A DNA stretch of 64,000 nucleotides from Candidatus Daviesbacteria bacterium. Lineage in GTDB: Bacteria; Patescibacteriota; Microgenomatia; Daviesbacterales; UBA10151. The stretch is taken from NCBI GenBank assembly GCA_028687915.1, contig JAQTZF010000001.1, forward strand, positions 216,229-280,228, read 5' to 3'. Below, piece after piece: positions 22,843-41,407 of the stretch. A program made the position numbers and the translations under genes. The notes under the pieces were generated by a model. The model did no database searches, had not been told where the DNA came from, and saw only the letters and a list, made by a program, of their open reading frames with translations. Within the stretch, counting starts at the first letter, position 1. The number at the start of each line of letters is the position of its first letter.

Positions 22843-22871
22843 TTGACAGAGAGGAGAGTTTGTGGTTAAAT
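22843..22871 (+). promoter_or_regulatory. Sigma70-like promoter for rpoB (TTGACA-N17-TTAAAT with a TG extended -10)
   Basis: TTGACA at 22843-22848, 17-nt spacer ending in TGG, TTAAAT at 22866-22871. About 105 nt upstream of the rpoB ATG. Confidence 0.45.
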
Positions 22872-22898
22872 TACCCTCAGCCAAAGAGTTTTTAAGAG

Positions 22899-22926
22899 GC
22901 ATACTTGCTATGTATGCTTCTTTTTC
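22899..22926 (+). terminator. Hairpin plus U-tract in the rpoB 5' leader (candidate attenuator)
   Basis: GCATAC/GTATGC stem (22899-22904 / 22912-22917), loop TTGCTAT, then TTCTTTTTCG. Confidence 0.35.
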
Positions 22927-22975: not shown

Positions 22976-25900
22976 ATGCCAAAACAAGTTGATAAACAAG
23001 TAAATAAAAGCTCCCGTACATACTGGGGCAGCCGAAAGAATTTCAACCAACAGTTTGATTTAACGTACCTCCAAAAAGAATCCTATGCTTGGTTTATGGA
23101 ACAAGGTATTGGTGAGATCTTACATTCAGTTAATCCAGTCCTCGATTTTACCGGTAAAAATTGGAAACTTACCTTTGAAGAATATACTTTAGGTAAACCA
23201 CGATACACCCCTGATGAAGCAAATCTGAAGGGGGTTTCTTTTGATGCACCTCTTCGTGTTAAAGTAACCTTGATTAATTTACAAACTAACGAAGAATACA
23301 AACAAGAGGTTTTCTTGGGAGATATTCCTCAAATGACAGATAAAGGAACCTTTATTGTCAATGGAATAGAAAGAGCAGTTGTTAACCAAATCGTCCGTTC
23401 ACCGGGCGTTTTCTTTTCTTCTTCACAAGATCCAATTACCGGAAAGATTTTATATTCAGCAGAACTTAGACCAGCTCACGGATCCTGGTTAGAATTTTCA
23501 ATCTCCAGATCAGATGTTTTGACAGTAAAAATAGACAGACGTAGAAAATTTGCAGCTTCTACTTTCCTTAGAGCAATTGGTTATTCTGAAGATGATCAAA
23601 TCAGAGAACTTTTTGCTGATATTGAGTTACCAGAAGATCGTAATTTTATTGCCTCAACTTTAGGAAAAGATACTACAACAAATACAGATGAAGCCTTGCT
23701 TGAAATCTATCGAAAAATGCGTCCTGGTGATCCAGTTGTTTTGGATAATGCTAAAGCATTACTTTCTGGAATGTTCTTTAACAGCAGACGTTATGATTTA
23801 ACCAGAGTTGGTCGATTTAAGATCAATAAAAAGTTAAAACTTGATATTCCAAACACTCCGGAAAATTGGATTTTGAAGAATGAAGATATTATTGCTACTA
23901 TTCGTTATTTAATTAATTTACAAATGGGACAGGGTAAAGTTGATGATATTGATCATTTGGCTAACCGACGTGTCAGACGTGTGGGAGAGCTTGTTGCTCA
24001 GAATGCTTTTTGGGTAGGACTTTTACGACTTGAGCGAGTGATTAAAGAAAGAATGAGTTTGCTTTCTGCTGAAATGGAAATTAATCCAGGATCTTTGGTT
24101 AATGCCAGACCTATTATTGCAGCAGTAAATGAATTTTTCCGTTCTTCCCAACTTTCTCAGATTTTAGACCAAACTAATCCTTTATCTGAAGTTGATCATT
24201 TAAGAAGATTAACTGTTACAGGACAAGGTGGTATAACCCGCGAAAGAGCTTCTTTCTCTATTCGTGATATTAACCATTCCCAATACGGAAGAATTGATCC
24301 GATCAGATCTCCGGAAGGACCTAATATTGGTTTAGTTACATATTTAGCCCTTTATTCAAGAATTAATGAATATGGATTTTTAGAAACTCCTTATAAAAAA
24401 GTAGTCTTAGAAAAAGGCAAACCCAGAGTTACAGATGAAGTGGTTTACTTGTCAGCTGAAGATGAAGAGGAATTCTATATTACTGAAGCAACTGCTAAAT
24501 TAGATGAACAAGGATTTATTACTTCAGAACGTGTGCCAGTTAGACATAACGGTAGCTTTTTTGAAACTGAAGCTAATGTAATTAATTATATTGATGTTTC
24601 ACCTCAACAAATTGTGGGTATTTCTGCGTCCCTTATTCCGTTCTTAGCTCATGATGATGCTAACCGAGCCTTGATGGGTTCACACATGCAGAATCAGGCA
24701 GTCCCATTATTACTTCCAACAGCTCCTGTTGTAGGAACTGGTATGGAGGTTGTAGTTGCAGATAATATGTCCCGGGTACAAAGAGCCCCATATGATGGAA
24801 CTATTACTTATGTTGATGGAGAAAAATTAACCATCACAGGTAAGCATGAATCTAACACTTATTTAATTAAAAAGTTTGTTAATACACCAGAAAATACCTG
24901 TTATTCACAAAGACCTGCAGTTTCAATCGGTCAAAAAGTACAAGAAGGTGACTTATTATTAGAAGGAACAGCAACTGATGGTGGAGAATTATCATTGGGA
25001 AGAAACCTATTAATTGCCTACATGAACTATGAAGGTTTAGGTTATGAGGATGCTATTGTTATTTCTGAAAAATTGGTTAAACAAGATGCACTTTCTTCAA
25101 TTTATATTGAAGAATATATTACAGATGTTGTAGAAACAAAGCTTGGGCCAGATGAATTAACACGAGATATTCCAAATGTTGCTGAAGAAAATTTAGCTAA
25201 TCTTGATGAAACCGGTATTGTTCAAATTGGAGCTAAAGTTGGACCAAATGATATTTTAGTAGGAAAAGTACAGCCAAAAGGTGAAACAGAATTAACTGCA
25301 GAAGAAAGATTATTACGAGCAATCTTTGGAGAAAAAGCTAAAGAAGTTCGAGATACTTCACTTCGAATGCCTCATGGTGAACGTGGAACTGTTATTGGAG
25401 TTCAGATTTTATCCCGAGAAAACGGTGATGAACTAGACGCTGGAACTCTGCAAAAGATTAAAGTAAAAATTGCTCAACTCCGAAAAGTTACTGTTGGAGA
25501 TAAGTTAGCTGGTCGTCACGGAAATAAAGGTGTTATTTCCAGAATAGTTCCAGAAGTTGACATGCCTCATCTTCCTGATGGTACCCCAGTTGATATTATT
25601 ATTTCTCCAGTGACCATCCTTTCCCGTATGAACTTGGGACAATTATTGGAAGCTCACCTAGGTTTAGCTGCTACCAGATTAGGTATAAAAGTAGCTGCTC
25701 CAGTTTTTGAAAAGATTCCAGAATCAATTATTTTAGACATGCTTGAAAAAGCAGGCATTCCTGAAACAGGTAAAATGAAGCTAATTGATGGTCGAACCGG
25801 TGAATACTTTGATCAGGATGTAGTGGTTGGAATGGCATATTTCCTTAAACTTATTCACATGGTTGAAGATAAACAACATGCTCGTTCAACTGGTCCATAT

Positions 25901-26455
25901 TCTATGGTTACACAACAACCTTTGGGTGGTAAAGCTCAAATGGGAGGACAAAGACTTGGAGAAATGGAAGTTTGGGCACTTGAAGCTTATGGTGCAGCAC
26001 ATATTTTACAGGAAATGTTAACTATTAAATCTGATGATGTAGTAGGCAGAACCAGAGCTTACCAAGCAATTATTCAGGGAGAAGATATTCCACAAGCTTT
26101 GATTCCTGAATCATTTAAAGTGCTTGTTAAAGAATTACAGTCATTGGGTATTAATGTAGAAACAGTTAATCCAAAATTAGGTGTATTAGAGTTGGATGTA
26201 GAAGTTAAACCAGAAGAAGCAGTCAGAACAGCTGAAATGCAGGAAGCAATGGGTGCAGAACCTTTGGGTGAATTATCAGAATTACTTACAGAAGATTCTC
26301 CTATGGAAGTAATCGATGCGGTTGACTTAAAAGAAGAAGTAGGCGAAAATGTACCATCAGGATCAGAAATGTTGGCTGAACTCGTTGCGCCTACAGAAGA
26401 AGAACCTGAAGAAGCAGAATTGAAAGAAGTAGAGGAAGAGGAGGAAAAAGAATAA
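22976..26455 (+). CDS. rpoB: DNA-directed RNA polymerase subunit beta
   Basis: 1159 aa with conserved beta motifs (…GDKLAGRHGNKGVIS…, …NLGQLLEAHLG…). Confidence 0.97.
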   Translation: MPKQVDKQVNKSSRTYWGSRKNFNQQFDLTYLQKESYAWFMEQGIGEILHSVNPVLDFTGKNWKLTFEEYTLGKPRYTPDEANLKGVSFDAPLRVKVTLINLQTNEEYKQEVFLGDIPQMTDKGTFIVNGIERAVVNQIVRSPGVFFSSSQDPITGKILYSAELRPAHGSWLEFSISRSDVLTVKIDRRRKFAASTFLRAIGYSEDDQIRELFADIELPEDRNFIASTLGKDTTTNTDEALLEIYRKMRPGDPVVLDNAKALLSGMFFNSRRYDLTRVGRFKINKKLKLDIPNTPENWILKNEDIIATIRYLINLQMGQGKVDDIDHLANRRVRRVGELVAQNAFWVGLLRLERVIKERMSLLSAEMEINPGSLVNARPIIAAVNEFFRSSQLSQILDQTNPLSEVDHLRRLTVTGQGGITRERASFSIRDINHSQYGRIDPIRSPEGPNIGLVTYLALYSRINEYGFLETPYKKVVLEKGKPRVTDEVVYLSAEDEEEFYITEATAKLDEQGFITSERVPVRHNGSFFETEANVINYIDVSPQQIVGISASLIPFLAHDDANRALMGSHMQNQAVPLLLPTAPVVGTGMEVVVADNMSRVQRAPYDGTITYVDGEKLTITGKHESNTYLIKKFVNTPENTCYSQRPAVSIGQKVQEGDLLLEGTATDGGELSLGRNLLIAYMNYEGLGYEDAIVISEKLVKQDALSSIYIEEYITDVVETKLGPDELTRDIPNVAEENLANLDETGIVQIGAKVGPNDILVGKVQPKGETELTAEERLLRAIFGEKAKEVRDTSLRMPHGERGTVIGVQILSRENGDELDAGTLQKIKVKIAQLRKVTVGDKLAGRHGNKGVISRIVPEVDMPHLPDGTPVDIIISPVTILSRMNLGQLLEAHLGLAATRLGIKVAAPVFEKIPESIILDMLEKAGIPETGKMKLIDGRTGEYFDQDVVVGMAYFLKLIHMVEDKQHARSTGPYSMVTQQPLGGKAQMGGQRLGEMEVWALEAYGAAHILQEMLTIKSDDVVGRTRAYQAIIQGEDIPQALIPESFKVLVKELQSLGINVETVNPKLGVLELDVEVKPEEAVRTAEMQEAMGAEPLGELSELLTEDSPMEVIDAVDLKEEVGENVPSGSEMLAELVAPTEEEPEEAELKEVEEEEEKE

Positions 26456-26456
26456 T

Positions 26457-29400
26457 ATGAACAACGACTTGTTAGATTTTGAAAGTTTAAAAGTAACTAT
26501 TGCCAGCCCGGAACAAATTAAGGCATGGTCTTTTGGGGAAGTCACAAAACCAGAAACTATCAATTACAGAACACTTAAACCTGAAAAAGATGGTTTATTT
26601 GCTGAAAATATCTTTGGTCCAACCAAAGATTATGAATGTTATTGTGGAAAATACAAAAGAATCAGATACAGAGGTGTTATTTGTGATAAATGTGGTGTTG
26701 AAGTTACTCAAAGCAAAGTTAGACGTGAAAGAATGGGTCATATTACCCTCGCTGCAGCTGTTGCTCATAATTGGTTTGTTAAAGGTGCTCCTTCTAAATT
26801 ATCTTTGGTATTAGATCTTTCCTTAAAAAGCTTGGAAGCAGTTATCTATTTTGCTTCATATTTAGTTACAGATATTGATGTTCCTCTTAAAGAGAAATCA
26901 ATGGAAAAATTAGAAAAAGATTTGGAAGCCAAAAAAGCAGAAGCTCAGGATATCTTTGATAAAGCAGTGGTAAATTTGGAATTTGAACTCAAAAAACAAG
27001 TATCTGAACTCAAAAAAGGTAAGGGAGAAGGCACAGAACTCGTAGCAGAAGACATGGGTCTAAAAACAAAACAAGAAATTCAAAAAATGCGTGATAATTT
27101 AGCAGTTGGTTTTGGACAACTGGAGCAAATCTATAAAGCAGTATCAGATTTAGTTAAAAGCATTAATTTCATGAGAGTAATGTCTGAAGATGAATATCTA
27201 AAACTTGATGAATATGGTGTATCTGATTTCCTTACCGTTGGTATGGGAGCAGAAGGATTACTTGAAGTATTAAAGAAAATTGATATGGATAAGTTATCCG
27301 CAGACTTAAAAGAAGAAGTTCGAAAAACTACTGGTCAAAGACATATTAAAGCTACAAAAAGACTTCGTGTTGTTGAAGGCATGAGAGCTGCTGATGTTGC
27401 TCCAGAATATATGGTTATGAGAATATTACCAGTTATTCCACCAGATCTTCGACCTATGGTTCAACTTCCTGGAGGAAGATTTGCTACTTCTGATTTGAAT
27501 GATTTATACAGAAGAGTTATCAACCGAAATAATCGTTTGAAAAGATTAATTGATCTAGGTGCTCCAGAAATTATTTTAAGAAACGAAAAAAGAATGTTAC
27601 AAGAAGCAGTTGATGCTCTTATTGATTCTAACTTAAAGACAACCAGACGTGGAGCAGGAACAGGCCACGTACTCAGATCATTATCTGACATGCTTCGTGG
27701 AAAACAAGGAAGATTTAGACAAAACCTCTTAGGAAAAAGAGTTGATTATTCCGGACGTTCAGTTATTGTTGTTGGTCCACATTTGAAATTAAACCAAGTT
27801 GGTTTACCAAGAGAAATGGCTTTGGAAATGTTCAAACCATTTGTTCTTCGAGAAGTAATTGGTCGTGGACTAGCTGCAAATATTAAAGGAGCTAAAAATA
27901 TTTTGGAACTTCGAACAGCTGAAGTTTGGGATATTTTAGAGGGTGTAGTACAAGGTCACCCAGTTTTGATTAACCGTGCTCCAACTTTACACAGACTTGG
28001 TATTCAGGCTTTTTATCCAGTTCTAATTGATGGTAGTGCTATTCAAATCCATCCTTGTGTTTGTGCTGGATTTAATGCTGATTTTGATGGTGACCAAATG
28101 GCTATTCACGTCCCATTAAGCAAGAGAGCAAGAGATGAAGCAGAAAACTTAATGTTAGCCAGAGAAAATATTTTGAGACCAGCTTCTGGCACTCCTGTAA
28201 CAGCACCAAACCGGGAGATGGGTCTTGGATCTTATTATGCAACTACTGTTGATGACAAGATTGAACCAATTACAGATCGAGTTTTTTCTCCAAATGAAGC
28301 TATTTTAGCTTTTCAAGTTGGAAAAGTAGGACTTCGACAACAGATTTTAGTTCGTTTTGAAGATGGTACTCAACTTGAAACAAGTGTTGGAAGAGTAATG
28401 TTTAATGAATTATTACCTCTAAACCAAAGATTTATTAACAGCGCTGTAGGAGTAAAAGATTTGCAAGATATTACTATGAAAGCTTTTAGTGTCAAAGAAA
28501 CTAGTGAAGAAGTAGCAGTCTTAATTGATAATTTGAAAGATTTTGGTTTCTGGGGTTCAGGTTTATCTGGATTATCTTTAGGAGTGTTTGATAATACTAT
28601 TATTCCAGAAAAAGATAAAATGATTGCAGATGGAGATAAAGAAGTTTCTGAAGTTGATGGAAATTTCAAAAAAGGTTTGATCACTAATGATGAAAAGAGA
28701 GTCTTAACTGAAGAAATTTGGACCAGAATTGGTGATGATATTGCAAAAAAGACACTTGGATCACTTACTCCAGATAATCCTGTAAGTATTATTATGAAAT
28801 CCGGTGGAGCCAGAGCTACACCAGAACAAATCAAACAACTTTCTGGTATGAGAGGTTTTTCCGTCGATCCAACCGGTAAAATTGTTGAACTTCCAACTAA
28901 ATCTAACTATCGCCAAGGTTTGGCTGTGTTTGAATACTTCACATCTTCCCGAGGTGCTAGAAAAGGTGTGGCTGACCGTGCTATCAAGACAGCTGATGCA
29001 GGTTACTTAACCAGAAGATTAGTTGATGTTGCTCATGATGTCATTATCCGAACAGAAGATTGTGGTGATGAACACGGTTTGGTACTTCCGGTATCCAGTG
29101 AAGGATTTTCAGTTGGTGTATCACGATTCTTAGGCAGGCATGTTGCTACTAAGATAGTTGATCCAAAAACTAAAAAAGTTATTGCTGAGGCTGGTGAATA
29201 CTTGGATGAGGATAAAATTAAACAAATTGTTGATGCAAATGTTGCTGAAATTAATGTTTACTCTCCTCTTTCCTGTAAAGCTAAATATGGAGTTTGTGGA
29301 AAATGTTATGGTTGGGACTTCACAACTCGCAAGCCAGTGGCAATTGGTGTACCAGTCGGTGTTGTAGCTGCACAAAGTATTGGAGAACCAGGAACTCAGC

Positions 29401-30155
29401 TTACCATGAGAACATTCCACAGTGGAGGTGTTGCAACAGGTGTTGATATTACCATGGGTCTTCCTCGTGTGGAAGAATTATTTGAGGCAAGAACACCAAA
29501 GAATATTGCACCATTATCTGAAATTGCCGGAAAAGTAACTATCACAGAAACAGACATGGGTATAAAGGTAAGAATCAGAACCAGTGCCAAGCCTGTAGAA
29601 GAAAGAGAATACTTAATTCCAGCTTCAGCAAACTTGTTAGTAGAAGATAACCAATTAATTTCTGCAGGTACACAACTAGCATCTGGTCACTGTGATATTA
29701 AAGAAATTGTCAGAGTAAAAGGTCTAAAAGAAGCTCAAAGATATATTGTTGATGCTGTAAGACAAGTATATTCATCTCAGGGTGTACCTATTAATGAAAA
29801 ACATTTTGAAGTTATTGTTCGAAAAATGTCTGACAAAGTCAGAGTTGAAAGCCAGGGAGATACAGCATTATTACCAGGTGAAGTTATTGACCGACTTAAA
29901 TTTGAAGAGGAAAACCAAAGAGTACTTGCAGAAGGTGGAGATCCATCAACAGCTTCTATCGTAATCTTGGGTATTACCAGAGCATCATTATTAACAGAAA
30001 GCTTCTTATCAGCTGCTTCCTTCCAGGAAACAACTACAGTATTAGCTGATGCAGCTGCACAAGGAAAGAAAGATCGCTTGTTTGGCCTCAAGGAAAACGT
30101 TATAATAGGGCGGTTAATCCCAACCAACCCTGAACGGGCTAGAGTGGAAAGATAA
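26457..30155 (+). CDS. rpoC: DNA-directed RNA polymerase subunit beta'
   Basis: 1232 aa. Zn-binding CxxC…Cxx[10 protein letters not shown] catalytic motif. Directly follows rpoB. Confidence 0.97.
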
Positions 30156-34373: not shown

Positions 34374-35492
34374 ATGCCCAATTCACAAAAGGTTAATATC
34401 CTGAGCGAGTATAACGAGTCGAAGGGTTTTGCACCCATTTTAATAGTTATTTTAATCGCTGTAGCAATTGGTGGATATTTAATATATTCTAACTACTTAA
34501 AGAATCAAACAAAAATTAATGTTCCTCAACAAACTTCTAACACTGAATCAACTAATTCTGGAAAAATTGCTAATTGGGAAACTTTAACACGAAACGATAA
34601 TGAATTTTCTTTTCAATATCCTCAAAATTGGAAATTAGTTCCTACGGATACTTCTAAGAATGGCTATAATTTTGAGTTTGTAGATCCTGATAAAATTTAT
34701 ACGCTCGATTTCTATTCACAATCTAATATTAATAAAGATACTGGCAAACCGTATAAAACACTATTGGAATTTGAGGATTTAGTTTCAGATCAACTTAAAA
34801 TTGTAGTTGATGGTCAAGAAGCTATTCAGGTTATGCCTCGAGCAGGCAGTGAGAACGCAAATTTGATTGATGTTTTTTCCAGAGATTCCACACAAATTTA
34901 TACTCTGAAATTAACTACTAATTCCAAACAGGATGACGCAGCAATTAAAAAAGGTCAAGAATTGTTTAAACAAATTCTTTCTACATTTAGAATTAAGCAA
35001 TTGCAACCTGCTTTTGTAATAAGTAAAGAATCCTTGGTTGGAATTTGGCAAAATGATTTTATGTTAGCAGCAGGTTGGGGAGACCGTTATCAATTTTACC
35101 CCTCTGGTAAATATGCTCATATAGCATCTGAAATGAATAATTGTACAAATACAGATTTAGGTGAAGTAGGCACATGGGAACTAAATAGTAATAAATTGTT
35201 GCTAACTGCTAAGCAAAAGATTATTTTAAAAGTTGCAGGAACAGTAGATGATCCTGCATGCGGACAGAAGGTTGTAGGTGGAGAATCAGCACAAGAAGTA
35301 GCAAATCCCAAAGTGGTTGAAATAGATTTGAGTGCACGCAAACCCCAGGCAAACGAACCATCTTATTATCCTTCTTTATTTTTCGGGAAAAAAGTTTATT
35401 GGAAATTTAATGATAAGTTAAAAGATAATCCGCCTTTTAAAGTTCTCCCTTTTTTAAGTGGTTGTGGACCAGATTTGGACCCATGTTTATAA
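34374..35492 (+). CDS. Secreted/anchored paralog-family protein (372 aa, divergent member with an extra Cys-containing C-terminal region)
   Basis: Leader …ESKGFAPILIVILIAVAIGGYLIY, core …IANWETLTRNDNEFSFQYPQNWK…, …FKQILSTFRIKQ motif in mid-protein. Confidence 0.55.
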   Translation: MPNSQKVNILSEYNESKGFAPILIVILIAVAIGGYLIYSNYLKNQTKINVPQQTSNTESTNSGKIANWETLTRNDNEFSFQYPQNWKLVPTDTSKNGYNFEFVDPDKIYTLDFYSQSNINKDTGKPYKTLLEFEDLVSDQLKIVVDGQEAIQVMPRAGSENANLIDVFSRDSTQIYTLKLTTNSKQDDAAIKKGQELFKQILSTFRIKQLQPAFVISKESLVGIWQNDFMLAAGWGDRYQFYPSGKYAHIASEMNNCTNTDLGEVGTWELNSNKLLLTAKQKIILKVAGTVDDPACGQKVVGGESAQEVANPKVVEIDLSARKPQANEPSYYPSLFFGKKVYWKFNDKLKDNPPFKVLPFLSGCGPDLDPCL

Positions 35493-35500
35493 AATAATAT

Positions 35501-36595
35501 ATGAATCAAAAAGGATTTGCTCCAATAATTATAATTCTAGGAATTGTTTTTACAGTTATAGGAATTGGGGGGTATTTCTTATTGTCAAATAAAAACTTTG
35601 TAAAATACTCACCCACAAACGAAATTTCTCCTACTCCTACTGTTGCAATACAATCTTCTTCCGATGTGATCTGTCCAGCTAATGCAGTAGTGACTTTTGG
35701 TTACGATACCACATATTTAACTCCTGCTCCACAAGATCCAAATCAAGTATGCAAGTTTTCTATTACTGTAGATAATGTCTCGGATTTAGTTCAAGAAATA
35801 AATCAAGCTAGCAAATACCCAAACCTGAAGATATTTAACATTCAAGGACCATCTGGAGGAGAAAAAACAGTATTTATGCCACCTGAAATATGGCAATTAA
35901 AAAATTTGCAATCCTTAAACATAGCATATGTAGAATTTAAAAATAGCACACTACCTGCTGAAATTAGTAATGTAAGTAATCTTAAACGTTTATCTGTATA
36001 TGGTTCTAATATTAGTTCTATTCCACCACAAATTAGTCAGCTTACACAGTTAACATACTTAGATTTTGGAGCAAATAATATCACAGTTCTTCCACCAGAA
36101 ATTGGAAGTTTAAAGAATTTAGCAACACTTAACTTATTTCATAACGAATTAAACTCTTTGCCTGATTCGATCGGTAATCTACAAAATTTGAAAAAACTTG
36201 TTTTGTCTAACAACTCTTTTTCTATATTTCCTGAAGTGTTAACGAAACTCAATGGTCTTGAGGAGCTTAATATGAATCAAAATCATTTAGCTTCAGTTTC
36301 TCTTCAGATAGGAAATATGAATCATCTGAAAAAACTTTCATTAAATAATTGGCCTAACCATGCCTCTGCAGCTTGTGGTGGAGCAGTCTGTCAAACAGAT
36401 CTTAAACAAGATATGGAGAATGGAAATAAAATATTAACTTTCCCTGATAGTATTGCTCAAATGTCTTCTTTATTGGAATTGGATTTAAGCAATGTTTCAA
36501 CACCGGTTGAAGTAATAAACCATCTTAAGCAAATACTACCAAAAACTACAATTAAGTTTGATCCTCCTGGATCTTATAGCAACTATCCTAAATAA
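35501..36595 (+). CDS. Paralog-family protein carrying a leucine-rich-repeat (LRR) array (364 aa)
   Basis: Leader MNQKGFAPIIIILGIV…. At least 8 tandem ~23-aa LRRs of LxxLxxLxLxxNxLxxLPxxIgxLxx type (…LKNLQSLNIAYVEF…LPAEISNVSNLKRLSVYGSNISSIPPQISQLTQLTYLDFGANNITVLPPEIGSLKNLATLNLFHNELNSLPDSIGNLQNLKKLVLSNNSFSIFPE…). Confidence 0.7.
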   Translation: MNQKGFAPIIIILGIVFTVIGIGGYFLLSNKNFVKYSPTNEISPTPTVAIQSSSDVICPANAVVTFGYDTTYLTPAPQDPNQVCKFSITVDNVSDLVQEINQASKYPNLKIFNIQGPSGGEKTVFMPPEIWQLKNLQSLNIAYVEFKNSTLPAEISNVSNLKRLSVYGSNISSIPPQISQLTQLTYLDFGANNITVLPPEIGSLKNLATLNLFHNELNSLPDSIGNLQNLKKLVLSNNSFSIFPEVLTKLNGLEELNMNQNHLASVSLQIGNMNHLKKLSLNNWPNHASAACGGAVCQTDLKQDMENGNKILTFPDSIAQMSSLLELDLSNVSTPVEVINHLKQILPKTTIKFDPPGSYSNYPK

Positions 36596-36629
36596 TTTGT
36601 ATGTATAATTTTGTGATAAGATTTAGTTA

Positions 36630-37241
36630 ATGCTAAAGGAAAAAGGCTTTGCACCAATAATTATAATTTTAGGAATTGTTTTATTTTTAGGTATAGTTGG
36701 TGGAGTGTATTATTTTAGTAAAAATTCAAGTAGTGCTATAAAAAATAATCCTGTAAATACCCCAACCCCAACTGCAACTCTAAAGGTAGATGAAACAACT
36801 AATTGGAAAACTTATACAAATACGGAATATGGATATTCAATAAAATATCCAGAAAATATTTCCTTAGAAGAAATGGGTGTGGATGTAAAAGGTAAACTAG
36901 TTAAATGGATTTGGATTGATAAACAAATCCAAATTTCTGTTACTAAAGCGAATTCTTCAGAATGCAAAGTAGATTGTCCGATTATTTCAAAGATAGAATC
37001 TGTTAAAATCGATAACACAGAGGGGAAAAAGCAGAGTGGTTATATTAGTCAAATAGGAGGGCGTATACCTCAGTCTTTCCAACAGGTTATTATCCCACAC
37101 AATGGTAGCTATTTTAATATTTCCCTCTATGAATTAAAAAATGATAGTATAAAGAGCTCTGAAAGAAAGGCGGGTACAATCACAGAAGCGGAAATTAAGC
37201 TTTTTAATCAAATTCTTTCTACCTTTGAATTTACTAAATGA
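36630..37241 (+). CDS. Secreted/anchored paralog-family protein (203 aa)
   Basis: MLKEKGFAPIIIILGIVLFLGIVGGVYYF leader, TPTPT linker, …TTNWKTYTNTEYGYSIKYPENIS…, …FNQILSTFEFTK C-terminus. Confidence 0.6.
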   Translation: MLKEKGFAPIIIILGIVLFLGIVGGVYYFSKNSSSAIKNNPVNTPTPTATLKVDETTNWKTYTNTEYGYSIKYPENISLEEMGVDVKGKLVKWIWIDKQIQISVTKANSSECKVDCPIISKIESVKIDNTEGKKQSGYISQIGGRIPQSFQQVIIPHNGSYFNISLYELKNDSIKSSERKAGTITEAEIKLFNQILSTFEFTK

Positions 37242-38167
37242 ATCAAAAGGGTTTTGTTCCAATAATTATAATTCTAGGAATTGTTTTATTTTTAACGATT
37301 GTTGGTGGTGCTTATTATTTTGGAAGAATGACTATAAAAGGTAAAATCTTAGACTATAACTCGATGCCTTTTGATAATCCTAATTTAGAAATTAAAGGAA
37401 TTAATGGCTCTTTTGGTAAATGTGAAGTTAAAAAGACAGGGAATTTTATTTGTAAAGCCCTATTATTGCCAAATCAAACTTATGGTATTTATTTAAATGA
37501 TGACAAAACTAATGCTTTTGTTCTTCAACATTTTACTGCTGAATTTGCAAAAATAGTTGATATAGGAGAGAGACAAGTACCAAGGACTAGTGAACCACAA
37601 GCCACTAGTATAGATGAAACTGCTGATTGGAAAACTTATACCAATACTAAATATGGTTATTTAATTAAATATCCCGAAAAATTGAAGATAAGAGAAAGAG
37701 GGAGTTTGAGTCCGTCATTGATTGATAGTTTAGATATATGTTTGAAGGAAAGTTGTGGTGACCCAGATATTATATCTGTTAACGTTATAACCAAAGAATT
37801 TGCATTAGGATCACTTAATAATCCTTCGATTAGCAAAGAAGAAATTACCATTAGCAATATTAAAGGTATAAAGAAGGTAGGTGAATATCATTACGGAAAA
37901 GAAATTATTGTTTATTTCCCTGCGCCTAATGGAGCTAGTTATGTAAATATTGGTACGAATAGTCAAAATGCACAAATTTTTGATACTATTCTTTCTACTT
38001 TTAAATTTACAGACACAAATTCAGGAAGTGGGAAATATACTTGTCCAGAAAATGGATATCAAAATTGTATGCCAATTTTAGATGCGGAAGGACAAAAACA
38101 ATGTAGCAAAGAAGCATTAGATTGGAAGCAAACTAATTGTCCCAATTTTTCAGGTGCGGCATATTAA
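37238..38167 (+). CDS. Secreted/anchored paralog-family protein (309 aa, the family domain preceded by a small N-proximal domain)
   Basis: MNQKGFVPIIIILGIVLFLTIVGGAYYFG leader, …TADWKTYTNTKYGYLIKYPEKLK…, …FDTILSTFKFTDTN… motifs. Start overlaps the previous gene by 4 nt. Confidence 0.6.
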   Translation: MNQKGFVPIIIILGIVLFLTIVGGAYYFGRMTIKGKILDYNSMPFDNPNLEIKGINGSFGKCEVKKTGNFICKALLLPNQTYGIYLNDDKTNAFVLQHFTAEFAKIVDIGERQVPRTSEPQATSIDETADWKTYTNTKYGYLIKYPEKLKIRERGSLSPSLIDSLDICLKESCGDPDIISVNVITKEFALGSLNNPSISKEEITISNIKGIKKVGEYHYGKEIIVYFPAPNGASYVNIGTNSQNAQIFDTILSTFKFTDTNSGSGKYTCPENGYQNCMPILDAEGQKQCSKEALDWKQTNCPNFSGAAY

Positions 38168-38184
38168 TTTTCAGATCATATGAG

Positions 38185-38213
38185 TTGACTTTGGGCTGCT
38201 TTTGCCTTAATAT
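38185..38213 (+). promoter_or_regulatory. Candidate sigma70-like promoter (TTGACT-N17-TAATAT) upstream of the mini-GreA/fusA genes
   Basis: TTGACT at 38185-38190, TAATAT at 38208-38213. Confidence 0.3.
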
Positions 38214-38222
38214 AAGCAAGTA

Positions 38223-38246
38223 GGCCTCCTTCAAGAGGCTTTTTCT
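38223..38246 (+). terminator. Rho-independent terminator-like hairpin at the 3' end of the paralog island
   Basis: GGCCTC/GAGGCT stem (38223-38228 / 38235-38240, one G·U pair), loop CTTCAA, then TTTTTC. Confidence 0.45.
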
Positions 38247-38253
38247 TATATAT

Positions 38254-38478
38254 ATGGATGCAAAACTGAAAGCAGAAAAACTGAAAATGTGGCAGGGAAA
38301 ACTCAAAAAACTCCAAGATGAGTTGGAAGCTATCATGGTCAGACGCGGGGAGGCTATTGCTATGGGTGATTTATCAGAAAATGCTGCTTTTTCTATGGCT
38401 GAAGAAGATGCAATTACCTGGAGAGTCAGAATTGAAGAGATTGAAAAGATCATTAAAACCATTGAGGATACTAAATAA
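38254..38478 (+). CDS. GreA/GreB N-terminal coiled-coil domain-only protein (74 aa), a mini-Gre factor with no C-terminal FKBP-like RNAP-binding domain
   Basis: …[39 protein letters not shown]… aligns to E. coli GreA 22-75 (…[33 protein letters not shown]), including the tip acidic D and E. The TAA stop overlaps the fusA ATG (TAATGG). Confidence 0.6.
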
Positions 38479-40619
38479 TGGCTGTTACCACCAAAACCAA
38501 GAGGGATTTCCCTTTGGATCAAATCCGTAATATTGGAATTATTGCCCACATTGATGCGGGAAAAACCACCACAACTGAAAGAATCCTTTTTTATACTGGT
38601 AAAACTTATAAAATCGGAAATATTGATGAAGGAACCACAGTTACTGACTGGATGGAGCAGGAAAGAGAAAGAGGAATAACTATTGTTTCTGCTGCCATTA
38701 CTACTTTTTGGACTCCTAAGACAGGTCCCTATAAAGATCAGGAGACCAGAATTAACATTATTGATACTCCCGGACACGTTGATTTTACAGCTGAAGTGGA
38801 AAGATCCCTTCGTGTACTTGATGGAGGTGTAATCGTTTTGGATTCAGGTTCAGGTGTGCAATCCCAAACAGAAACAGTCTGGAGACAAGCAAATAAATAT
38901 AAAGTTCCGCTTATTGCTTTTGCAAATAAAATGGATGTAGTGGGAGCAGATTTTTTAGCTACTATTCAATCAGCTAGAGATAGATTGGGAGCTAATGCAA
39001 TTGCTTATAACTTACCAATTGGTAGTGAAAATGATTTTAAAGGAGTAATAGATTTATTAACCCAAAAAGCTTTTGTATGGGAAGGTAATGATACCGGAGC
39101 TAATTTTAATGAAATAGATATTCCTGCAGATATGGCTGACGCAGTAAAAGAGCATCGTGAAAAATTAGTTGAAGAAATCTCTGGTACAGATGATGTGCTG
39201 ATGGAAAAATATCTTGGTGGAGAAGAAATCTCTGTTGAAGAACTTAAAAAAGCTTTGCGAAAAGCAGTAATTAATAATGAAATTGTGCCTGTTTTGGCTG
39301 GATCATCTCTTAGAAATAAAGGTGTGCAGCAAATGCTTGATGGTGTTATTGAATATTTACCTTCACCACAAGATGTTAATGAAATTGTGGGAGAAAATCC
39401 TGCTACAAAAGAACAAGAAGTTAGAAACGCTGATCCTTCTGCACCATTATCTGCTTTAGCTTTTAAAGTTCAGGTTGATCCTCACGTTGGAAAGTTAACT
39501 TTTATTCGAATTTATTCCGGAACCCTAAAATCAGGTTCATATCTTTATAATTCCACCAAAGATATTAAAGAAAGAATTGGCCGTCTTATGTTAATGCATT
39601 CTAATGACAGAGAAGAAATTGAAGAAGCATATGCCGGAGAAATTGTGGCTGCAGTTGGTTTAAAAGACACTATTACCGGTAACTCTATTTGTGATGAAAA
39701 CAAACCTATTATTTTGGAATCAATTAATTTCCCAGAACCTGTTATTTCACTTGCCATTGAACCAAAAACCAAATCAGATCAGGAAAAATTAGGTTTAGCT
39801 TTATCAAGGCTTTCAGAAGAAGATCCTACTTTTAGGGTTAAGTCTGATCATGAAACAGGTCAAACCATTATTTCCGGAATGGGAGAGTTACAACTTGAGA
39901 TTTTAGTGGATAGAATGAAGAGGGAATTTAAAGTGGAAGCTAATGTTGGTCAACCACAGGTAGCATATAAAGAAACTATTCAAAAAACAGCCACAGGAGA
40001 AGGAAAATACATCAGACAAACCGGTGGTCGTGGTCAATACGGACATTGTTGGCTTAGAATTGAACCGCTTCCTCGTGGTTCCGGACGTGAATTCGTTTCA
40101 GAAATTGTGGGAGGAGCAATTCCCCGTGAGTTTATTGGTCCAATTGAAAAAGGTGTAATTGAAAAAGAAGACACAGGTATCCTTGCTGGTTATCCTGTAA
40201 CTGATATTAGGGTAGTTGTTTATGATGGATCTTTCCATGATGTTGATTCATCTGAGGTATCCTTTAAAATTGCAGGTTCTTTAGGTTTGTCTGAAGCAGC
40301 ACATCAAGCAGACATGATTTTACTTGAACCAATCATGAAAGTTGAAGTAACAACACCAGAAGAATTCCTCGGTGATATGATTGCAGATTTATCTTCCAAA
40401 AGAGCTCAAATCTTATCAACTGAGATGAGAGGAAATGCCAGAGTAGTATTAGCACTTGTTCCTTTGGCAGAAATGGGTGGTTATGCTACTTCAATTAGAT
40501 CAATGTCTCAGGGAAGAGCTACTTATTACATGGAAGCTGATCATTATGAACCAGTGCCATCAAATGTTACCCAAAAAATTATTGCAGATTCAGGCTTCAC
40601 AGGCCGTATTGAACACTAA
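38478..40619 (+). CDS. fusA: Elongation factor G
   Basis: [23 protein letters not shown], 713 aa. str-operon position. Confidence 0.96.
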
Positions 40620-40642: not shown

Positions 40643-41407
40643 ATGGAATTTCTTTGGTATATTTTAGGCCCGTTATTTTTATTTTTTCTTCTTACCAGTT
40701 TAAGAGTGGTGCAAGAATATGAACGGGGAGTAATCTTCTTTTTAGGGCGATGTACCGGGGTTCGTGGTCCGGGTTTAATTATTTTAATCCCTATTTTAGA
40801 AAGAATGATGAAGACAACACTTAGAACCATTACCATGGATATTCCTTCCCAAAAGATTATTACTAAAGATAATGTTTCAATTGATATTGCTGCTGTTGCT
40901 TATTATCATATTGTTGACCCACAAAAATCAGTGGTGGCAATTGAAGATGTTTATTCGGCTGTAAATCAAATTTCCCAAACTACAGTCAGAAATGTAGTGG
41001 GACAATTTATGTTGGATCAATTATTGGCAAAGACTAGTGAAATTAACACCCAGATTAAAAACGTAATTGATACTCACACTGAACCTTGGGGAGCAAATGT
41101 TACTGCTGTTGAAATTAAGGATATTATTTTACCTGATAATATGCAAAGGGCTATGGCAAAAGAAGCAGAGGCAGAGAGAGAAAGAAGAGCAAAAATTGTG
41201 GCTGCAGAAGGAGAATTTCAGGCTGCACAAAAGCTAGGGGAAGCAGCAGACCTTATAACCAAGCATCCAGTAGCCTTACAACTTAGAACCTTACAAACCA
41301 TGGCAGAAATTGCAACGGAAAAGAACTCTACTATTATTTTCCCAGCTCAGTTTATGGGTACAGTACAAGAAGCGATCAGAACTCTGGCTAAAGATGCTTC
41401 AAAATAA
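40643..41407 (+). CDS. SPFH/band-7 (stomatin/prohibitin-like) membrane protein
   Basis: N-terminal transmembrane segment, …[15 protein letters not shown]…, …[24 protein letters not shown]… are typical of the SPFH family. Inserted between fusA and tuf. Confidence 0.8.

Follow-up and report, generated by a model that had tools for sequence, protein, structure and literature searches.

A stand-alone Gre-like coiled-coil protein encoded upstream of fusA in Daviesbacteria

The stretch of 64,000 nucleotides (nt) of Candidatus Daviesbacteria DNA analysed here (contig JAQTZF010000001.1; referred to as the window) harbours, immediately upstream of fusA, an open reading frame (ORF) of 74 residues which, judged by its profile matches, is a genuine and lineage-specific member of the Gre superfamily with a single domain, the N-terminal coiled coil. 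The protein is here named mini-Gre. Because one defining Gre feature, the C-terminal domain, is missing, its make-up marks it as an architectural variant within the Gre kind and not as an ordinary member. To our knowledge, two domains are held to be obligatory in Gre factors, the coiled coil performing the chemistry and the globular domain conferring affinity for RNA polymerase (RNAP), and a natural family that has only the N-domain, is under purifying selection and keeps an invariant tip challenges the indispensability of the C-domain. Beyond what an initial annotation had proposed from the sequence of the window, we report a lineage-wide family with paralogues, a coupling to fusA that is not universal, and a conserved promoter and terminator-like leader belonging to mini-gre itself. 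The reading that we consider rather probable is that of a minimal RNAP secondary-channel factor, probably cleavage-stimulating, with a GraL-like leader behind its own promoter.

Homology, architecture and conservation

The sole Pfam match of the ORF was GreA_GreB_N (PF03449; E=3.2e-8; 34.1 bits, gathering cutoff 24.5 bits), with an alignment spanning profile positions 5-69 of 71. NCBIfam models of full-length greA matched through their N-terminal halves only, at 16-36 bits (cutoffs 139-234), and a Pfam scan of mini-Gre gave no match to PF01272, the Gre C-terminal globular RNAP-binding domain; fusA begins at the stop codon. The initial annotation had recognised a Gre coiled coil devoid of its globular partner and with the acidic tip retained, and the profiles and the alignment agree with it on each count: in the tip GDLSENAAF, D39 falls on catalytic D41 of Escherichia coli GreA and E42 on E44. 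E. coli GreA has K13 at the column of K9 and no Trp at that of W13, two residues of the Lys-rich first helix of mini-Gre. Affiliation to the DksA/TraR family, with its C4 zinc finger and DxxDxA tip, was considered and excluded by the lack of any Pfam or NCBIfam match to that family at E≤1 or E≤10 and of any Cys among the 74 residues. The database entry MDD2822707.1, a "hypothetical protein" encoded on a 1.096-Mb contig of a Candidatus Daviesbacteria metagenome-assembled genome (MAG), is identical to it; some members of the family bear this tag at NCBI, and IMG lists some as "transcription elongation GreA/GreB family factor".

AlphaFold2, supplied with the family alignment, confidently predicted a two-helix antiparallel coiled-coil hairpin, with a helix at residues 3-36, a seven-residue tip loop and a second helix at 44-72 (mean predicted local distance difference test, pLDDT, 90.3). 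The best PDB matches of the model in Foldseek were the N-domains of GreA (9a7t_B, 1grj), Gfh1 and GreB.

An exhaustive single-sequence search of 1.84 billion cluster representatives returned 18 clusters, nearly all of 72-102 residues, and a 25-member profile extended this to at least 925 clusters at E≤1e-3, of which the best 120 were all 72-101 residues long. In a GTDB scan with one genome per species, at least 109 species representatives had relatives, and 80 loci were retrieved. Short ORFs (63-103 residues) with an intact GDL(S/R)ENA tip were found in 78 of the 80, while the other two (L090, and the Roizmanbacteria locus L091) were canonical full-length GreA of other organisms. Where the titles of retrieved loci named a candidate phylum it was Daviesbacteria, and all carriers of mini-Gre appear to be Daviesbacteria-like, that is Microgenomates of the Candidate Phyla Radiation (CPR)/Patescibacteria. 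A wider distribution, suggested by loci entitled "uncultured Gammaproteobacteria", was rejected; these titles are placeholder labels on Daviesbacteria-like genomes, since the median EF-G identity to the window was 83.6% in such loci vs 83.5% in Daviesbacteria-titled ones and the GC content was alike. Misleading public labels are carried by L013, L019-L024 and about 30 more loci from 'binchicken' third party annotation (TPA) MAGs (GenBank accessions beginning with CAY or CAZ), whose synteny, GC and EF-G are Daviesbacteria-like. No phage counterparts of mini-Gre were found. Nowhere in the literature searched did we find a family of stand-alone Gre N-domains described, nor the linkage to fusA, the paralogues or the leader, our survey being one of this lineage.

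Mini-Gre is under purifying selection, with a ratio of non-synonymous to synonymous substitution rates (dN/dS) of 0.14-0.16 in the closest pairs and a median of 0.27 over 238 unsaturated pairs. In an alignment of 72 sequences (71 fusA-linked loci and the window), K9, W13, A34, G38, D39, L40, E42, N43, A44 and A45 were invariant in all 72. Together with a length that recurs in hundreds of independent assemblies, this selection speaks against the ORF being what is left of a full-length greA, either as a pseudogene or through an assembly frameshift; the frameshift had been raised by the initial annotation, and no supporting point was found for either. No reading frame downstream of mini-Gre runs on into a Gre C-domain; a tblastn search of the window with E. 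coli GreA hit the mini-Gre N-domain region only, a Pfam scan of ten other small ORFs of the window uncovered no second Gre protein or detached C-domain, and it is an intact fusA that begins at the stop codon. An artefact of this kind can be set aside with near certainty.

A related possibility is a split Gre, in which a C-domain encoded by a separate gene elsewhere would associate non-covalently with mini-Gre. Its indirect support is that the docking site on the beta' subunit is conserved: the rim helices are present at rpoC residues 715-770, with the tip GLITNDEK vs GLVTAGER in E. coli, which also rules out the loss of this docking site as an explanation for the loss of the C-domain. A hidden Markov model (HMM) built from 118 canonical CPR-type GreAs was run on six-frame translations of 739 kb of fetched DNA around the 80 related loci, mostly Daviesbacteria-like. 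It gave 95 matches, all ending at the domain boundary (HMM positions 69-80 of 153), and no Gre C-domain in these 739 kb except in the canonical L090 and L091. With no C-domain-like ORF in the window or in this DNA, a mini-Gre whose sequence breaks off neatly at the domain boundary, its tail being variable and charged and not an interface-like segment, and no extra Gre-like domain in the Pfam lists of rpoB or rpoC, a split Gre is very improbable.

Canonical GreA is present in other CPR lineages (Roizmanbacteria, WWE3, Uhrbacteria). Among the best 120 of 7,834 canonical GreA matches to the queries L090 and L091, none was labelled Daviesbacteria and none lay on a mini-Gre contig, which is a weak negative in both respects. 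The closest canonical-looking GreA, P0043, sits on a 1.4-kb contig and was uninformative as a clue to lineage. Another protein, P0045 (195 residues), is a full-length GreA with a tandem duplication of the helix-1/tip segment (ELDELINxKRPxNxxAIKEARALGDLSENAxYDAA), giving two catalytic tip motifs within one N-domain. The literature searched held no account of GreA in Daviesbacteria or CPR.

Mini-Gre genes not adjoining fusA occur in five loci, as unlinked copies in L080 (616-837) and L082 (2170-2397) and as tandem pairs in L083 (3926-4480), L084 (1835-2394) and L086 (1797-2373). Three assemblies hold both fusA-linked and unlinked genes, and up to three mini-Gre genes are found per genome. Each tandem pair combines a copy with the canonical tip and one that reads VGYLSENAY, in which the catalytic Asp is replaced and the loop is one residue shorter; the scores of these variants do not exceed the PF03449 threshold. 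Two metagenomic members, P0037 and P0039, have degenerate but acidic tips (TNLGDDSALQ and NGEDEDSALF) and, from these motifs, may be non-catalytic derivatives. By analogy, the paralogy resembles the diversification of GreA, GreB and Gfh1 in other bacteria.

Table 1. Coordinates of mini-gre, its leader and associated genes in the window
Feature	Position	Strand	Remarks
rpoB	22976-26455	+	ATG at 22976
rpoC	26457-30155		window annotation
Sigma-70-type promoter-like element, TTGACT-17 nt-TAATAT	38185-38213	+	9/12 match; putative function
Leader stem-loop, AGGCCTC-CTTCAA-GAGGCTT and T-run, terminator-like	38222-38249	+	begins 8 nt after the -10 element
Mini-Gre coding sequence, 74 residues, Gre N-terminal coiled coil only	38254-38478	+	ATG start; ORF and profile analysis
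K9-W13 codons (KLKMW)	38278-38292	+	K9 and W13 invariant in the mini-Gre family
Tip motif codons, G38-D-L-S-E-N-A-A45	38365-38388	+	D39/E42 correspond to E. coli GreA D41/E44 (alignment)
GAGGA, Shine-Dalgarno-like, for fusA	38464-38468	+	within the 3' end of mini-gre; 9 nt before the fusA ATG
fusA (EF-G, 713 residues)	38478-40619	+	complete, all five domains; ATG shares 1 nt with the mini-Gre stop

Leader and genomic neighbourhood

The promoter-like element and the stem-loop, the latter ending 12 nt before the mini-Gre ATG, are widely kept. A promoter-like TTGACTTT[TG]..-17-TAATAT was found in 65 of 71 homologous loci vs 5% of control windows, a hairpin with T-run in 50 (6.5% of controls), and the ordered series of promoter, hairpin and ATG in 46 (0.5% of controls), an enrichment of about 90-fold. 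The stem sequences vary among loci with pairing maintained, and the module accompanies mini-gre regardless of the upstream genes. It takes the form TTGACTTT..-17 nt-TAATAT followed by a GC-rich CCTCC/GGAGG hairpin and T-run in the window (38185-38249), in L001 (5886-5950) and in L005 (5897-5976). In most cases 6-15 nt separate the -10 element from the hairpin, which puts the latter practically at the 5' terminus of the RNA, and in 16 of the 46 loci a GGAGG-containing 3' arm lies so close to the ATG that it could serve as the Shine-Dalgarno sequence. Neither an Rfam scan (gathering threshold) nor a tRNA scan gave a match in the window.

In E. coli, transcripts of greA meet an intrinsic terminator, GraL, in the leader, 19 nt from the start; about two-thirds of them end there, and the autoregulation that it mediates needs catalytically active GreA (PMC6829880). 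The mini-Gre leader has a GraL-type layout, with a putative intrinsic terminator shortly past a gre promoter. We know of no leader-based feedback on gre genes other than by GraL, and the conserved promoter-proximal hairpin suggests that such feedback may extend beyond E. coli. Besides attenuation, the hairpin may serve to stabilise the 5' end, to mask the ribosome-binding site or to terminate transcription arriving from upstream.

A promoter followed by a hairpin is not unique to mini-gre, because a similar layout precedes rpoB: in the rpoB leader (window 22843-22922, + strand), TTGACA-18-TAAATT is followed 21 nt later by a 29-nt hairpin with T-run, an attenuator-like arrangement ahead of the RNAP operon which recalls the rplL-rpoB attenuator of E. 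coli.

In the window, rpoB and rpoC are followed by rpsL and rpsG; about eight inserted genes then separate rpsG from mini-gre, behind which come fusA, a Band-7 gene, tuf, rpsJ and the cluster of ribosomal protein genes. Other Daviesbacteria keep the order rpoB-rpoC-rpsL-rpsG-(0-3 variable genes)-mini-gre-fusA, and in L001 mini-gre adjoins rpsG on one side and fusA on the other. The conservation of the ORF 5' of fusA among relatives, a check suggested by the initial annotation, was found in 73 of 78 loci, where fusA follows directly. That annotation had also described the mini-Gre stop as overlapping the fusA ATG, which is accurate for the window (TAA 38476-38478 and ATG 38478-38480 share one A, in TAATG), and the two genes as translationally coupled. 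Coupling is common; judged by the predicted distances from the mini-Gre stop to the fusA start, it is not obligatory, since these lie within +/-4 nt in 48 of the 73 loci and the remainder are spaced wider (8-28 nt in 6, 51-287 nt in 19).

This position invites the view that mini-Gre has been recruited to translation, as a partner of EF-G or the ribosome, and has lost its role at RNAP. The location just 5' of fusA in 73 of 78 loci, and within +/-4 nt of it in 48 of 73, implies co-expression with EF-G. But rpoB and rpoC belong to the same cluster, about 1 kb upstream in the simplest arrangement, and the invariant residues are those which coordinate catalysis in the RNAP active site; moreover, paralogues away from fusA exist, and the spacers of 51-287 nt in 19 of 73 loci show a coupling that is not obligatory. 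A role confined to translation is thus improbable. The placement between rpoBC/rpsLG and fusA, often coupled, links a putative transcription-fidelity factor to the expression of the translation elongation machinery.

The inserted genes between rpsG and mini-gre differ in every relative examined, and the junction is therefore a hotspot of gene insertion. In the window it includes four consecutive ORFs (34374-38167, + strand; 372, 364, 203 and 309 residues) with a common N-terminal KGF(A/V)PIIIILGIV transmembrane or signal segment, three of which have a common C-terminal (Q/T)ILSTF(K/E/R)(F/I) motif. The ORF at 35501-36595 is leucine-rich-repeat-like, and that at 37238-38167, the one of the four submitted to Pfam, had no match. 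In three loci (L023, L072 and L074) mini-gre starts only 27-28 nt past rpsG, a spacer too small for an own promoter and hairpin, so that mini-gre is there probably co-transcribed with rpsL and rpsG. On the other side, a Band-7/SPFH gene between fusA and tuf (window 40643-41407, + strand) breaks the classical str operon; it has an equal position in L001 (8763-9542) and L005 (10091-10852) and recurs in several Daviesbacteria.

Proposed function and its rivals

A role in the RNAP secondary channel is the best explanation of these sequence features, and we hold it to be probable, because the catalytic motif is invariant, the helices have Gre-like lengths and the gene is linked to rpoBC. Stimulation of transcript cleavage is the most probable activity within this role, with the chances about even. 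We propose the following course. Mini-Gre is fixed in Daviesbacteria within the rpoB-rpoC-rpsL-rpsG-[mini-gre]-fusA-tuf cluster, where mini-gre and fusA would be co-transcribed and often translationally coupled through their abutting or overlapping ends. Expression would start at its own promoter and pass through the promoter-proximal terminator-like hairpin, permitting a GraL-like feedback. The hairpin of the protein would enter the secondary channel and bring D39 and E42 to the active site in the manner of canonical Gre N-domains, stimulating the cleavage of backtracked RNA or at least filling the channel. Binding to RNAP, we infer, would be achieved by the coiled coil itself, perhaps by its Lys-rich N-terminal helix with K9 and W13. 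About 26 residues separate these two from the tip, which would place them close to the mouth of the channel; they are candidates for a substitute anchor in place of the missing C-domain.

Koulich et al. 1998 reportedly found that the isolated GreA N-terminal domain (NTD) has weak residual cleavage-inducing activity and that the C-domain alone binds RNAP. The Gre NTD is the seat of nucleolytic and anti-arrest activity, and the C-terminal domain binds the coiled-coil/rim helices of beta' and gives affinity for RNAP (PMC3132773, PMC4598747).

Several points weigh against the proposal. A single mutation in the C-domain, S127E, abolishes the activity of MtbGre (PMC3132773). Since the C-domain gives the affinity for RNAP and this mutation abolishes activity, an NTD-only protein may, by analogy, bind too weakly for catalysis. 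Gfh1 and Rv3788 keep acidic tips yet inhibit and do not cleave (PMC4598747), which makes a conserved tip no warrant of cleavage. The Foldseek E-values were at least 0.09 and not significant alone, because a two-helix hairpin is a generic fold, so that it is the sequence profile which carries the Gre homology. The close coupling to fusA could instead be a sign of a translation-related role, and the hairpin with its T-run could simply end upstream transcription or stabilise the 5' end of the mRNA.

The inhibitory behaviour of Gfh1 and Rv3788 despite their acidic tips also lends weight to a non-catalytic occupant of the channel, a regulator or competitor of their type that modulates canonical GreA or RNAP generally. 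The two to three paralogues of some genomes, one of them with GYLSENAY in which the Asp is replaced, fit a set of competing binders; canonical GreA in other CPR lineages means that Daviesbacteria may have it too, and beta' still has the rim helices on which the Gre C-domain docks. On the other hand, the tip motif GDLxENAA is invariant in 78 of 78 loci, which is stricter than occupancy seems to need, and a protein without the C-domain is expected to be a poor competitor. The best 120 matches include no Daviesbacteria-labelled canonical GreA and none on a mini-Gre contig, a weak negative as noted. We regard a purely non-catalytic occupant as unlikely, with a minor yet real share of the probability. 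The initial annotation had named both a minimal secondary-channel factor and a competitor or regulator of a full-length Gre, without choosing; as the pair that may best account for the sequence, both are retained here, likewise without a choice between them.

What decides between a sole minimal Gre factor and an accessory regulator or competitor is the presence of canonical GreA in Daviesbacteria. Tentatively, and with doubt outweighing confidence, it may be supposed that Daviesbacteria are without a two-domain GreA and that the mini-Gre family, with its three paralogues at most and its Asp-to-Tyr variant, makes up their whole secondary-channel repertoire. If this is true, a bare coiled coil binds and acts in the RNAP channel by a new mode of contact, for which K9 and W13 are candidates, and feedback on its own and fusA expression via a GraL-like leader is possible. 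Mini-Gre adds to the picture of simplification of the core machinery in genome-reduced CPR bacteria, and constitutes a minimal natural system for asking what portion of a Gre factor suffices to enter the channel and to catalyse.

Comparison with known systems

Mini-Gre shares with GreA and GreB (E. coli GreA 1GRJ; GreB 2P4V) the homologous PF03449 coiled coil, the identical placement of acidic residues in GDLxENA and helices of similar length, about 30 residues each. It differs from both in the absence of the PF01272 domain of about 80 residues that binds the beta' rim helices, and from GreA in its family-specific invariant W13 and Lys-rich first helix, K9 having its counterpart in E. coli. 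The gene context differs also: the canonical greA of L090, the only one whose context was read, adjoins lysS, whereas mini-gre is found in the str operon before fusA. The engineered isolated GreA NTD has the same coiled-coil-only architecture, but mini-Gre is a natural gene, conserved lineage-wide and with conserved surface residues of its own.

Among smaller or specialised channel proteins, TraR is a plasmid-encoded truncated DksA homologue of 73 residues and a functional secondary-channel factor. It resembles mini-Gre in being a factor of about 70 residues that arose as a truncation of a larger family, but it belongs to the DksA family and its truncation is the opposite one, keeping the zinc-binding globular part and losing part of the coiled coil. 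Gfh1 (Thermus) and Rv3788 (Mycobacterium tuberculosis) are Gre-fold channel proteins with acidic tips and are paralogues that exist beside GreA; they provide a model for a non-cleaving competitor, especially for the GYLSENAY paralogue. Unlike mini-Gre, which has no C-domain, both are two-domain proteins in which the C-domain mediates binding and, in Gfh1, also a pH switch. In HelD, a Gre-like coiled coil serves as a channel-inserting module in another architecture (PMC7749165); large helicase-like domains hold it in place there, whereas mini-Gre consists of the coiled coil alone.

With respect to regulation, the leader of mini-gre is like that of E. coli greA in that a promoter is followed within about 20 nt by a terminator hairpin ahead of a gre gene (PMC6829880). 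It differs from GraL in having neither sequence similarity to it nor an Rfam match, in a hairpin that starts almost at +1, and in the inclusion of a probable Shine-Dalgarno sequence in about one third of the loci.
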